A DNA stretch of 56,911 nucleotides from a virus (IMGVR_UViG_3300006201_000024); one strand, 5' to 3'. Shown: positions 805 through 54,046, numbered from the stretch's first letter. Numbers and translations: made by a program. Notes: generated by a model from the letters alone, not told the origin.

Positions 805-838
805 TTGGTACAAATAATTTTAGGAGCTGTGGTATGAT
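805..838 (+). promoter_or_regulatory. Dispersed phage promoter-like motif, copy 1
   Basis: TTGGTACAA (805-813), 19 nt, TGGTATGAT (-10 at 833-838); precedes an ORF-free tRNA-like block. Confidence 0.5.
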
Positions 839-954
839 ATAAAAGAAGTGCAAGACAGACAGCACTATAAAACGTGGGTCATGGCTTTGCGACAGTAATT
901 GACTGAAAGACAAGAGCCGCACTGCACAGTCCTTGCATACAGAAAATGGACAAA

Positions 955-1028
955 GGACAGATTGATGTAGAGGGCATACACAGGACGTAACAGTTTGTGG
1001 GTGTGTGGTTCAAATCCGCACCTGTCCA
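955..1028 (+). ncRNA. tRNA-like element A1 (noncanonical anticodon arm)
   Basis: Acceptor GGACAGA/CCTGTCC (6/7 bp), T-arm TGTGG-TTCAAAT-CCGCA, D-arm GATG..CAT; the anticodon region folds only as a 6-bp stem with a 9-nt loop. Confidence 0.45.
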
Positions 1029-1114
1029 CGCGGCCGAGAGTGGAGAAGGCCGAGAAGCTATTTTATAGCATTCCCCGCTATGAAGTCCACATAGGCATAA
1101 ATAAATAGGACGGT

Positions 1115-1190
1115 GGAAAGTTGTGTTATCTGGCGTGAAACTGTCGGGAGGCTAGCACCGGCGAGATAGGTTCGATCCCTATACTTTCCA
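1115..1190 (+). ncRNA. tRNA-like element A2 (noncanonical anticodon arm)
   Basis: 76 nt; 7/7 acceptor GGAAAGT/ACTTTCC; perfect T-arm ATAGG-TTCGATC-CCTAT; no canonical 5-bp/7-nt anticodon arm found by hand. Confidence 0.5.
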
Positions 1191-1310
1191 TGCGGTTAGG
1201 TAGCGCCTAACTAGACAGGAGCAAGCGGTCACTGCCCTGTCGAAAACAAAATAATTCTGATAGGGGAGGTATCCTGTCAGAGACCGCAAAAATATGGGAG
1301 GGATAAAGAA

Positions 1311-1496
1311 ATGGAAATTAAAGAGGTAAATTGTTCAATATGTAACCATCCGTTAAATATAAGCAAGGAAAATGTTTATGTTGCTAAAAATGTAAAAAAT
1401 ATTCTTTTCGGAAATGAAGATTGGAGCGCTACCGACTGCCCGTATTGCGGCTGTCAGAATTTGTTAAAGAGAAGATTTGAAAAGGCGATTAAATAG
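1311..1496 (+). CDS. Hypothetical zinc-ribbon protein
   Basis: 61 aa; SD GGGAGGG; CSIC...CPYCGC cysteine pairs. Confidence 0.6.
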   Translation: MEIKEVNCSICNHPLNISKENVYVAKNVKNILFGNEDWSATDCPYCGCQNLLKRRFEKAIK

Positions 1497-1523
1497 TTTG
1501 TCGGAAACCGCAAAAGGGAGGAT

Positions 1524-1655
1524 ATGGGAATGTTGGAGATTTTACAATTCATATTTAGCAGCTTTTGGATATTTTGCGGAACGGTTATTTTACTTGGACT
1601 TGTTGGTGAAATTATCGTAGGAGTTTTTGAAGCTGTATTTCGTAACAAGAAATAG
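1524..1655 (+). CDS. Hypothetical small membrane peptide (43 aa)
   Basis: SD AAGGGAGG 3 nt before ATG1524; hydrophobic core FIFSSFWIFCGTVILLGLVG; below the ORF-track size cutoff. Confidence 0.4.
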   Translation: MGMLEILQFIFSSFWIFCGTVILLGLVGEIIVGVFEAVFRNKK

Positions 1656-1663
1656 CCTTTAAC

Positions 1664-1697
1664 TTGGTACAACTACCCCGCCAAACTGCGGTACAAT
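1664..1697 (+). promoter_or_regulatory. Dispersed phage promoter-like motif, copy 2
   Basis: TTGGTACAA (1664-1672), 19 nt, CGGTACAAT (-10 at 1692-1697); 25 nt upstream of ATG1723. Confidence 0.55.
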
Positions 1698-1722
1698 ATA
1701 GGAAATCGGGAAGGATAGGGAA

Positions 1723-2094
1723 ATGCGAGAGAATTTGTTTAGAGGAAAAGATATAGACGGTAAATGGGTTGAGGGCTGTTGTGTCGTAGATGGAATGGAC
1801 GCGAACAAAGTATATATTGGATATATTTTCGGCTCTGACGGTAGACAGCCACATAATACTGATGTTACTTTGGTAGACCCTGAAACCGTCTGCCAGTACA
1901 CCGGCTTGACCGACAAGAACGGCAGGAAGATTTTTGAGGGGTATATTTTAAAAATACCAGAAAAGAAAAACCACAATGTAAAATTTGAATATGGGCAGTT
2001 TTGCGTTGGGATAAATTGCCCTATTGCATATATTAGGACAGAGTGTGAGGTTATCGGAAACATTTTCGACAATCCCGAACTGATAGGAGAATAA
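1723..2094 (+). CDS. YopX family protein
   Basis: FRGK..DGKWVEG, VDPETVCQYTGLTDKNGRKIFEG and EVIGNIFDNPEL are the YopX signature blocks. Confidence 0.85.
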   Translation: MRENLFRGKDIDGKWVEGCCVVDGMDANKVYIGYIFGSDGRQPHNTDVTLVDPETVCQYTGLTDKNGRKIFEGYILKIPEKKNHNVKFEYGQFCVGINCPIAYIRTECEVIGNIFDNPELIGE

Positions 2095-2096
2095 CA

Positions 2097-51857: not shown

Positions 51858-51880
51858 GCGCAGAAGAAAGTAGCGGTGGT

Positions 51881-52153
51881 ATGAGGAAAAAGAAGGAAAA
51901 GGAAATCGAGGGTTTTGTTAAGTGGGAATTGGAATTATTTAGAAGCGAGTGCAATTTTACGCCTGATGAATCCTTATTTTTTGATTTGAGGAATGAAGGT
52001 GATGGAATGACATTTGAAGAAATTTCAGAGGAAACGGGTTATTGCATGAACAAAATCAATAAGCTTTCCGAATCTGTTAACAAAAAGATTATCAAGGTAT
52101 TGCCGCTCAAAGAAGCATTTTTTAAGAAATATCGCGATAAATATACAGAATAA
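51881..52153 (+). CDS. Sigma-70 region-4-like HTH protein (candidate transcription activator)
   Basis: 90 aa; MTFEEISEETGYCMNKINKLSESVNKKI resembles a region-4 HTH. Confidence 0.45.
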   Translation: MRKKKEKEIEGFVKWELELFRSECNFTPDESLFFDLRNEGDGMTFEEISEETGYCMNKINKLSESVNKKIIKVLPLKEAFFKKYRDKYTE

Positions 52154-52177
52154 TTGAATAAAAAACGCAACAAAAAC

Positions 52178-52213
52178 GAGGGTTTTCCAAGTATGGGAAA
52201 CTCTCTATTTTTA
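52178..52213 (+). terminator. Rho-independent terminator
   Basis: 11-bp stem GAGGGTTTTCC/GGGAAACTCTC, loop AAGTAT, then TATTTTTA. Confidence 0.8.
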
Positions 52214-52254
52214 TGCGAAAATTTACCTATAGAAAGAAATCGGAGGGCGTTCAG

Positions 52255-52782
52255 ATGGGATATTATCAAGACCAATTAGGGCGGTGGGTCTTTCAGCCAG
52301 ATATTCAACCGCAAGTTCAGCCACCTATGGATAGATTAGCACAGTTACAATCACAGCAAAGAAATGTAGCGCAGCCGCAACAGCCAAACCAGTCATTGTT
52401 GTATGTACAGGGAGAAGCAGCAGCTAAAAGCTGGATGGTAGGAGCTGGTCAGTCTGTATTGCTGATGGACAGTGAGAATCCGGTGTTTTATATCAAATCT
52501 GCGGATGCTTCGGGGATCCCGTTGCCACTTCGGGTATTTGATTATACAGAACGCACGCAGAGCGTGCCACAGAACGCACCACAAGCCCAAAATACGGCTC
52601 AAATTGATTTGGATGGTAAATATGTCACAAGGGAAGAATACGAAGCCTTACAGGGAAAATATGTGGAGATTTTGGATAGGCTGAATAACTTTCCTGCCAG
52701 TGTTTCAACTTCTGATGATTCCAAGAGAACAGCGGCAGGAACAAGCAAGGCAAGAAATAAGGGAGGGAGTGCTAATGAGTAG
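52255..52782 (+). CDS. Hypothetical Q/P-rich protein
   Basis: CGGAGGG plus ATG52255; QPDIQPQVQPPMDRLAQLQSQQRNVAQPQQPNQ. Confidence 0.6.
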   Translation: MGYYQDQLGRWVFQPDIQPQVQPPMDRLAQLQSQQRNVAQPQQPNQSLLYVQGEAAAKSWMVGAGQSVLLMDSENPVFYIKSADASGIPLPLRVFDYTERTQSVPQNAPQAQNTAQIDLDGKYVTREEYEALQGKYVEILDRLNNFPASVSTSDDSKRTAAGTSKARNKGGSANE

Positions 52783-53008
52783 TCCGGTTTTTGGAGCGAT
52801 GGGTGGAAATATGGGTGGTGGACCGTTCGCCATGATTCAACAGTTTATTCAGTTTGCAAACGGATTTAAGGGAAATCCACAGGAAGAAGTGCAAAAGCTT
52901 CTTAATTCTGGTCAGATGACACAGGAGCAGTATAACTCTTTACAGGGACAGGCAACACAGTTTCAACAGCTTCTTGGCAAGTTTCCCGGCGCAAACAATT
53001 CAAAGTGA
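52775..53008 (+). CDS. Hypothetical G/Q-rich small protein
   Basis: GGGAGGGA plus ATG52775; 77 aa. Confidence 0.55.
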   Translation: MSSPVFGAMGGNMGGGPFAMIQQFIQFANGFKGNPQEEVQKLLNSGQMTQEQYNSLQGQATQFQQLLGKFPGANNSK

Positions 53009-53057
53009 TACAAAAATCTGCGCAGATTTAGTATAAATAAAATTTTCGGAGGTAATT

Positions 53058-53849
53058 ATGATGGATTCAGGTGGAGTACCTATGACTATGCCTGTACAGC
53101 CGGCATATTCAACTAACAACGGAGGCGGCTTTGGCTGGGGCGGCGATGGTGCATGGTTCCTTATTATCCTTTTCTTATTCGCTTTCTGCGGTTGGGGAAA
53201 TGGAGGATTCGGCGGCGGATTCGGAGGAAACGGAGCGGCTTTACAGGGCGCACTTACCAGAGCGGATATTAACGATGGATTCGCACTGAATAACCTGCAG
53301 AGCGGCATTAATGCTATTCAGCAGGGCATCTGCGATGCTACATATGCTCTCAACGAATCAATCCGCAATGGCTTCAGCAATGTGCAGTCCTTGATTTGTA
53401 ATCTTGGTTCACAGCTTGCACAGTGCTGCTGCGATATTCGGGCGGCGATTCAGGAAGTCAAATTTGAGATGGCGCAGAGCACAGGCGCTATTACAAACCA
53501 GATGAACACCAACACAAGGGATATTCTGGAGAATCAGAACAGCAACACCCGCGCTATTCTTGACTGGCTGTGCCAGGAAAAGATTGACGCAAAGAACGAG
53601 AAGATTGCGGAGCAGGCAGCATTGATTCAGACGTTGCAGTTACAGAAGAGTCAGTCAGACCAGAACGCATTTTTCGCCGCAAATCAGGAAGCCCAGACAG
53701 CGGAACTTATCCGTAGGCTTGGCAAGGATTACCCGGTCAATGCCGTGGTGGTTCAGCCGAGTACGCCCGTTACTTTCCCGACAAATTGTTGCGGACAGTT
53801 TAACGGCGGCGGTTGGGGGAACGGTTGCAATCAGTGTGGCAACTGCTAA
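53058..53849 (+). CDS. Gly-rich membrane protein with a Cys-rich C-terminus
   Basis: GGGFGWGGDGAWFLIILFLFAFCGWGNGGFGGGFGGNG; coiled-coil middle; C-terminus NCCGQFNGGGWGNGCNQCGNC. Confidence 0.65.
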   Translation: MMDSGGVPMTMPVQPAYSTNNGGGFGWGGDGAWFLIILFLFAFCGWGNGGFGGGFGGNGAALQGALTRADINDGFALNNLQSGINAIQQGICDATYALNESIRNGFSNVQSLICNLGSQLAQCCCDIRAAIQEVKFEMAQSTGAITNQMNTNTRDILENQNSNTRAILDWLCQEKIDAKNEKIAEQAALIQTLQLQKSQSDQNAFFAANQEAQTAELIRRLGKDYPVNAVVVQPSTPVTFPTNCCGQFNGGGWGNGCNQCGNC

Positions 53850-53921
53850 AAACTGAAAAATGAGTATCTTTTTCGTGAAACATCGGAAATGTTCGGCATG
53901 AGCCGTTATTACAACGTGGGA

Positions 53922-53947
53922 GGGCAGAACATGGATTCTGTCCTTTT
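53922..53947 (+). terminator. Rho-independent terminator
   Basis: GGGCAGAA/TTCTGTCC stem followed by TTTT. Confidence 0.7.
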
Positions 53948-54012
53948 GCGATTAACTGGACATTGATAACTGAATATTAGGTGGTAGTTTGTGGACTTCT
54001 GATAGTTTTAAC

Positions 54013-54046
54013 ATGGTACAAATACAATCTGAATGTGTGAGAAAAT
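54013..54046 (+). promoter_or_regulatory. Dispersed promoter-like motif, copy 7 (ATGGTACAA variant)
   Basis: ATGGTACAA (54013-54021), 19 nt, GAAAAT (54041-54046). Confidence 0.4.

Follow-up and report, generated by a model that had tools for sequence, protein, structure and literature searches.

The stretch of viral DNA analysed here (IMGVR_UViG_3300006201_000024; 56,911 nucleotides, called the window below) represents one circular genome of ~56.9 kb from a temperate siphophage. Its final 50 bases (56862–56911) are a copy of bases 11–60, and because the ends overlap by these 50 nt the assembly is circularly closed; relatives run continuously from 55.9 kb into 0.9–3 kb, consistent with this closure. 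Nearly all genes are on the + strand. Dispersed between them are seven sites at which the 9-mer TTGGTACAA, or in one case ATGGTACAA, is followed at an almost constant distance by a hexamer like the −10 element of a host promoter. These candidate promoters (9-mer promoters below) are the subject of this work. To our knowledge, almost nothing is known about the timing of transcription in Lachnospiraceae phages of the gut.

The exact 9-mer occurs six times, starting at 805, 1664, 11690, 26478, 37897 and 49872, always on the + strand. The expected number is 0.69, and none of 100 shuffled sequences reached six. ATGGTACAA at 54013 has the same layout, giving seven composite sites that can be written as (T/A)TGGTACAA-N18/19-TAnAAT. 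The shorter word GGTACAA was found nine times on the + strand of the window and never on the − strand. A position matrix was built from 24 non-redundant sites of the relatives and the window. With this matrix the seven sites, all on the + strand, scored 17.6 to 44.3, compared with a maximum of 16 in shuffled sequence. All seven lie in intergenic DNA, which makes up 11.4% of the genome (P ~2e-7), and each is oriented towards + strand genes or RNAs that follow it. The enrichment and strand bias of the motif were thus confirmed. The sequence-only reading of the window had listed eight + strand copies. Enrichment and matrix bore out seven of them, and the eighth, TTGGTAAAA at 9474–9482 (+), was rejected as a degenerate family member at a matrix score of −2.3, inside the shuffle range. 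Five copies have 19 nt between the 9-mer and the TAnAAT-like hexamer, and two (11690 and 26478) have 18 nt; the 20 nt that had been included in the proposed range of 18–20 nt was never seen.

The sites are located at the starts of transcription units or cassettes, as the proposed placement at module boundaries had it, and the conserved promoters serve also as exchange points. The class A promoter (37897–37930, +) marks the early/late boundary, 5 nt past the last early open reading frame (ORF). It heads the genes from 37957 onward, which on the + strand include terS (39091), TerL (40060), the portal gene (43653) and the minor head gene (46607). A conserved inverted repeat (37906–37955, +) surrounds the class A −10 and start site, pairing the spacer CTCCCTCCTAAATCTCC with the leader AGGGGATTTGGGGGGGGAG. 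In read-through transcripts the repeat would form an RNA fold of −31 kcal/mol (z −4.7), with the −10 and the start site in the loop. Complementarity of the spacer to about the first 20 leader nucleotides is found in the window and ~25 orthologues, and the other promoter classes have no such repeat; covariation is too sparse for telling a DNA operator from an RNA hairpin.

Class B (49872–49905, +) consists of TTGGTACAA-N19-TAAAAT together with a conserved ribosome-binding site, and in relatives this combination precedes at least seven unrelated first genes. Class C (1664–1697, +; TTGGTACAA-N19-TACAAT) stands before the YopX / Cys-rich KTR cassette (1723–2613), which ends in a terminator (2632–2669), and has about 15 homologous copies in Lachnospiraceae genomes. 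The site at 54013–54046 (+; ATGGTACAA-N19-TGa-GAAAAT) precedes an int-alpA RNA and the genes at 54136–55926, followed by a terminator at 55933–55958. Both 54013 and 1664 thus head units of promoter, genes and terminator. The site at 805–838 (+) has the 9-mer at 805–813, a 19-nt spacer and TGg-TATGAT at 833–838, with a predicted start at ~845; the 466-nt leader between it and 1311 has no clear ORF, and homologous copies are present in three relatives (L121, L122 and L336). In L121 and L122 the terminator GGCGGCAGTGATGCCGCT is directly followed by the 805-type promoter, while the window has ~480 bp between the two (315–800), possibly an insertion. The site at 11690–11722 (+; 18-nt spacer, TGg-TATAAT) precedes a small RNA of ~95 nt. 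The last site, at 26478–26510 (+; 18-nt spacer, TACAAT), lies 14 nt past the endolysin stop codon and is antisense to the minus-strand lysogeny genes (26607–27905). It is the weakest member (score 17.6), without comparative support, and no credible + strand ORF was found for ~800 nt downstream. It may yield an antisense transcript against the gene for a 197-aa membrane protein and CI. Other copies of the 9-mer are located 14–20 nt 5′ of start codons having strong ribosome-binding sites.

Three parts can be recognised in the sites: a TAnAAT −10, often with a TG-type extension; no usable −35; and the invariant box (T/A)TGGTACAA at about −40 to −32, with TTAA before it. The distance from box to −10 is fixed at 19 bp, rarely 18. 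In the order of their coordinates, the seven −10 hexamers are TATGAT, TACAAT, TATAAT, TACAAT, TAAAAT, TAAAAT and GAAAAT, all close to the sigma-A consensus TATAAT and all having its A at position 2 and T at position 6. Information was also found at positions that had not been used for selecting the sites, namely TTAA just 5′ of the box, AA at spacer positions 11–12, T and G at −15/−14 and an A directly after the −10 hexamer. The AA belongs to a weak AAnCT block at spacer positions 11–15, so that the weakly conserved middle block noticed earlier is real. Of the 24 non-redundant sites, 20 have the T of the TG extension at −15 and 14 have its G at −14. In the window, 805, 11690 and 54013 carry the TG in register, and at 1664, 26478, 37897 and 49872 it is off by one or missing. 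Sites with non-homologous spacers have only the box, AAnCT, TG and −10 in common.

A consensus scan paired no −35-like hexamer at 16–18 bp with any of the seven −10s, in agreement with the earlier view that the 9-mer is not a well-placed TTGACA −35 box. Within the 9-mer, TTGGTA would be 21–22 bp from the −10, and GTACAA, at 18–19 bp, matches only two of six −35 positions. The 9-mer itself was rejected as a −10, the base at the −7 position being C or A and never T. The same genome has canonical promoters: a perfect TTGACA-17-TGcTATATT early promoter (27954) and a TTGCAA-17 promoter at 51128. The latter (51128–51156, +; TTGCAA-17-TGcTATAAT) resembles the class A promoter less its GTA and with a spacer 2 bp shorter. 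It had been taken for a GTA-less variant of the family, and is better described as a separate promoter of canonical sigma-A type. It is conserved 5′ of an operon with a sigma region-4-like gene in 14 of the 15 motif-bearing relatives checked. By inspection against consensus sequences, promoters of the sigma-54, sigma-H/E/K/F/G/D and TcdR types, and the CtsR, Spo0A, Rex, LexA and PhoP boxes, did not fit both the box and the −10. Promoters of extracytoplasmic function (ECF) sigma factors (−35 GGAAC-like, −10 CGT-like, spacer 16–17) were also rejected: despite the similarity of GGTAC to GGAAC, the sites have TAnAAT as −10 and a spacer of 19.

Two of the sites precede structured RNAs whose positions can be compared with the predicted starts. 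The int-alpA RNA (Rfam RF02996; 54050–54116, +; 39.7 bits, gathering score 35.8) begins 37 nt after the start of the 9-mer, and its 5′ end at 54050 is within ~3 nt of the start predicted from the 54013 −10. Nine further int-alpA RNAs were found in relatives (L122, L202, L207, L295, L309, L316, L331, L336 and L362; 39.5–50.1 bits), and all ten start 37–40 nt after the start of a 9-mer. The int-alpA RNA of the window precedes a gene (54136–54909) with an SGGKDS (PP-loop-like) motif. No mention of either RNA was found in the available text of the paper defining int-alpA and gut-2. The small RNA behind 11690 (11729–11825, +; ~95 nt) combines a gut-2-like hairpin (RF02990, below threshold) with an intrinsic terminator of 20 bp (11772–11816) and folds at −39.9 kcal/mol (z −5.5). 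The hairpin scores 29.5 bits in the window and 38.4 in L331, for a gathering score of 39.8. The 11690 homologues in L331 and L031 keep the 9-mer and the −10 and differ in the spacer. This RNA has the last small ORF of the tail region on one side and the tape-measure gene on the other. The listed GTG start of the latter (11805) falls inside the terminator, so the true start is probably later.

Relatives were fetched via four anchors: the capsid protein (L121, L122), TerL (L201–L214), the sigma region-4-like protein encoded at 51881 (L350, L357–L364) and the minor head protein (L440–L446). They carry the composite at homologous places and at extra ones. In 45 related loci (514 kb), all 89 composites found are on the gene strand. 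They represent 46 distinct sequences, and the spacer is 19 nt in all. In a control of 268 more distant phage loci (3.67 Mb) there were 10 on the + and 10 on the − strand, which is chance level. The −10 hexamers in the relatives are TAAAAT (16), TACAAT (12), TATAAT (5) and others. Among the class A orthologues the third base of the −10 is C, A, G or T, and the 9-mer is unchanged throughout. A genuine −10 accompanied by an upstream box under its own constraint would be expected to show just this combination of a free third base and a fixed 9-mer.

When 185,579 species genomes were scanned with the pattern TTGGTACAA-N10-AANCT-N4-TANAAT, 69 hits were returned. Roughly 50 of them belong to Lachnospiraceae prophages, frequently with several on the same contig, and the other ~17 correspond to chance expectation. 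The Lachnospiraceae hits come from mouse-gut isolates and metagenome-assembled genomes, Hungatella, Acetatifactor, Dorea, Blautia and Eubacterium sp. 14-2, and fall into a few homologous promoter classes; in Eubacterium sp. 14-2, a cultivable lysogen, the prophage carries seven copies or more. A viral scan with TTGGTACAA-N18/19-TANAAT (14 specified bases) returned single chance-level hits only. The motif was absent from relatives found by the major capsid protein (≤56% identity), TerL (~75%) and the endolysin, and is therefore confined to a narrow lineage. A near-identical stretch is present on a metagenome contig of 66,996 bp; a near-identity search of the INPHARED phage collection gave no close relative of the window. 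A full-text literature search for the 9-mer returned primers only.

A sister group of phages (L366–L436) with the same gene order lacks TTGGTACAA and has AAAAGTGGTAGAGAG-N20/21-TATWAT instead, with all 41 copies on the gene strand. The sister box occupies the corresponding places, ahead of the packaging genes and of the tRNA/scaffold block (e.g. L366 2108 and 13794). The sister 9-mer, GTGGTAGAG, is also a tRNA D-arm sequence, and some raw matches to it are tRNAs. TGGTAnA is common to the two boxes; both look like a truncated extended −10 and both stand at an unusually long fixed spacing.

Strand, spacing, the free third base of the −10 and the RNA 5′ ends argue strongly for promoter function of the sites, in line with the phage-specific promoter family suggested at the outset. 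We put the probability at roughly 60% that the seven sites are promoters of one lineage-specific class, found in a family of temperate Lachnospiraceae siphophages, in which a host-type −10 is combined with a box that replaces the −35. In such a class, host RNA polymerase with sigma-A would recognise the −10, and a trans-acting specificity factor would recognise the 9-mer box, taking the place of the −35 contact. The promoters would start the packaging/head operon (37897), the promoter-to-terminator accessory cassettes (49872, 54013, 1664 and 805) and the int-alpA and gut-2-like RNAs; from 26478, transcription would probably run antisense through the lysogeny genes. All would then belong to a single regulon under common control, separate from the canonical early promoter. 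The box had been proposed as a site for an activator, an alternative sigma factor or an antiterminator. A trans-acting factor is probably needed; nothing specific for antitermination was found.

The only candidate with a DNA-binding fold adjoining these promoters is a 90-aa stand-alone sigma region-4 / LuxR-GerE-type helix-turn-helix protein (51881–52153, +). It is encoded by the last gene of the 51128 operon (51128–52205, +), which also contains genes for a zinc-ribbon protein (51252) and a membrane protein (51591) and ends in a terminator (52178–52205). The layout is reminiscent of a sigma/anti-sigma unit, and in relatives the 51128 promoter is nearly identical while the genes behind it differ. 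The AF2 model (pLDDT 82.6) has a four-helix region-4 fold, and the top Foldseek hits are almost all sigma region 4 (probability 0.9–0.99, rmsd ~2.1 Å over 57 residues). Of 78 remote homologues from a profile search, 21 match Sigma70_r4_2, 19 Sigma70_r4 and 19 GerE. Thus the earlier description of this protein as region-4-like is right at the level of the fold. An hhalign comparison of the family with region 4 of E. coli sigma-70 placed the helix-turn-helix in register, at a probability of only 2.5%. In each of the seven motif-bearing relatives with that region sequenced, the family is represented. A query with the L122-type sigma region-4-like protein retrieved identical copies only.

It is possible, though in our view doubtful, that in these Lachnospiraceae siphophages this small sigma region-4/GerE-type protein, made from its own canonical promoter, replaces or repositions sigma-A region 4. 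This would let host RNA polymerase read a phage-specific surrogate −35 (TTGGTACAA, or GTGGTAGAG in the sister lineage), and the packaging operon, the cassettes and the int-alpA and gut-2-like RNAs would be switched on together.

Several points weigh against this proposal or against a factor-read promoter class as a whole. We infer from sequence both that transcription starts at the predicted positions and when it does so, and a TG extension is often present, so sigma-A alone might suffice. The 51881 protein itself had no Pfam, PHROG or PDB sequence-family match, and its Foldseek E-values are no better than 0.16–1.5. The recognition helices differ strongly among phages with an identical 9-mer (YCMNKINKLSES, CSISTVNRVNKS and YEDIKKLSQR), and the helix in the sister group, which has the other box, resembles one of the helices of the 9-mer phages. 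Seventy-two loci (1.23 Mb) with genes of the 51881 family have no composite on the gene strand and one on the opposite strand. No covariation of the sigma region-4-like protein with the box was found, nor, within the regions fetched, any gene specific to motif-bearing phages. Further, no CI operator is visible at the 51128 operon; should its expression be constitutive, an activator encoded in it would turn the packaging operon on in lysogens, barring a second control by the class A inverted repeat. The supposed link between this protein and the motif is thus backed by the presence of the family in seven of seven relatives, and opposed by helices that vary under an identical 9-mer and by the many family phages without the 9-mer. 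We regard 51881, whose DNA binding is putative, as a weak candidate for the reader of the 9-mer. The reader may be 51881, an early phage protein outside the comparison or a host protein, or there may be none if sigma-A and TG suffice.

The last of these possibilities is that the sites are plain extended −10 promoters of host sigma-A with no added factor, the 9-mer being an upstream enhancer or a co-inherited sequence. The frequency of T at −15 and G at −14 agrees with it, as does the failure to find a phage-specific factor or a sigma region-4-like protein that covaries with the box; the promoter-gene-terminator cassettes are moron-like, and morons are normally expressed by host polymerase. We nevertheless consider it unlikely. 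Only the first position of the 9-mer varies (T or A); the other eight are the same in 46 distinct sequences with unrelated spacers and a fixed distance of 19 bp, a constraint far above that of an UP-like element. The box of the sister lineage is different yet equally fixed, and a correctly placed TG is missing at 37897, 49872, 26478 and 1664.

The box could instead be read by a host protein, an alternative sigma factor or regulator of a Lachnospiraceae subgroup to which the phage promoters have adapted. Mouse-gut and related Lachnospiraceae are the source of the phages with the 9-mer, other samples that of the sister group with its different box, and no phage gene tracks the box. A host reader seems to us rather improbable, since the Lachnospiraceae hits of the genome scan, whose pattern required AAnCT, all fall into a few homologous prophage promoter classes, with none before an obvious host gene, and since the hosts belong to several genera (Hungatella, Dorea, Blautia and Acetatifactor).

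The word GTACAA connects the 9-mer with the immunity switch (27930–28001). There the operators TTGTACAAAGTACAA (27930–27944) and TTGTACGAAGTACAA (27987–28001) flank the perfect promoter TTGACA (27954)-17-TGcTATATT (−10 at 27977–27982). The TTGTAC-N3-GTACAA operators at 27930 and 27987 are present as the sequence-only reading described them. From this and from the 9-mer on the other strand, TTGTACCAA, one might suppose that the 9-mer is a half-operator for a CI-like or Cro-like repressor, and that the sites are repressed and not activated. This is very unlikely: the 9-mer has a single CI half-site without a partner at operator spacing, where the sequence reads TTAAC-like and not TTGTAC; the box keeps a single orientation at −40 to −32, atypical of a dimeric repressor; and the GTAC in the −10 is not conserved. 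A link between the 9-mer and the CI operator is unproven and unlikely. Equally remote is the idea that the repeats are not independent promoters but act chiefly as linkers for recombination or load a Q-like antiterminator, to which the exchange of first genes behind class B, the position of the sites at cassette borders and the several terminators that interrupt the late region had pointed, since a fixed distance to a −10 with a drifting third base and RNA 5′ ends at predicted starts are signatures of promoters, cassette exchange is better taken as a result of conserved promoters, and known Q-type systems have one promoter per genome, not seven.

Compared with known systems, the class is of the kind in which a host −10 is combined with a phage-specific upstream box. 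Its closest analogues are the promoters dependent on Mu C/Mor, P2 Ogr and T4 MotA, and the class proved to be a member of none of these. Like the late promoters that depend on Mor/C in Mu and on Ogr/Delta in P2/P4, the sites number several per genome and have a host-type −10, no −35 and a conserved activator site beside or overlapping the −35 region, and such promoters together form one temporal regulon. Here, homologues of Mor, C and Ogr were not found, and there are differences in the sequence of the box, its strict distance of 19 bp, the Firmicutes host and the use of the promoters for small RNAs and accessory cassettes. The middle promoters of T4, where AsiA and MotA appropriate sigma at a MotA box plus sigma-70 −10, share a good host −10, a phage box for the −35 and a fixed distance. 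The MotA box is TGCTTtA centred at −30, which is absent here, the present box being at −40 to −32, and no MotA or AsiA homologue was found among ~70 ORFs scanned with Pfam or PHROGs.

The late-activator systems RinA/ArpU/LtrC of temperate Gram-positive phages also have a dedicated promoter directly 5′ of the terS-TerL packaging operon, as in class A, in a temperate Firmicutes siphophage. Upstream of terS there is no RinA, ArpU or DUF1492 gene; 36657–37891 is PAPS-reductase-like, and 37957–39079 matches only PHROGs of unknown function. Unlike in those systems, the motif is reused in at least six other places, and the candidate helix-turn-helix protein is encoded ~14 kb away in the accessory region. 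GerE of B. subtilis, which activates or represses sigma-K promoters, is like 51881 a protein of ~70–90 aa with only a sigma-r4/LuxR-type helix-turn-helix domain. By this analogy 51881 could act beside the −35 region, its DNA binding being putative. The likeness is at fold and family level only, and the 9-mer is different from the GerE site, RWWTRGGY. Promoters of the extended −10 type (TGnTATAAT), for instance the middle/late ones of Thermus phage P23-45, resemble the sites in lacking a −35 and in the TG extension that the sites often have. They need no upstream box, whereas here the invariant 9-mer at fixed distance is the most conserved element.

The other genes of the window are arranged as follows. 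On the + strand are the scaffold (3030), major capsid (3671), tape-measure (11805) and endolysin (25669) genes, and no promoter was recognised for the scaffold and capsid genes. A CI-like helix-turn-helix protein (27495–27905) and a membrane OB-fold protein are encoded on the − strand. The early operon encodes Sak4, a nuclease, a primase and a helicase, and its final genes encode a methyltransferase and the PAPS-reductase-like protein. A Tn916-type Xis/Int pair (47975–49497) lies between the minor head gene and the accessory region, which wraps around to the scaffold gene. The integrase is absent at the same place in the more distant relative L350; with Int at this position, the head gene cluster of an integrated prophage would be divided between both prophage ends. 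A tRNA-like element (2875–2951) comes after the terminator at 2632–2669 and upstream of the scaffold gene; it was found with Rfam (44.8 bits) and missed by ARAGORN, and relatives carry clear tRNAs at this place (best 71.5 bits, L350). A separate cassette (9633–10382) is headed by TTGGTATAAT, itself an extended −10. Its product has 216 aa and a signal-peptide-like N-terminus, and a terminator (10347–10382) closes it.

The motif provides a precise promoter signature for dozens of prophages of mouse-gut and related Lachnospiraceae and for viral metagenome contigs. The orphan int-alpA RNA, and with it the gut-2-like RNA, gain a defined promoter and a phage context. The swapping of accessory cassettes is explained by one promoter and ribosome-binding site ahead of different genes. 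Once the factor is known, the promoter may be of use as a portable expression part. Should the box be read by a phage factor, be it a small sigma-r4-type protein or some other, these phages would be a new example of promoter re-targeting in phages of Firmicutes.

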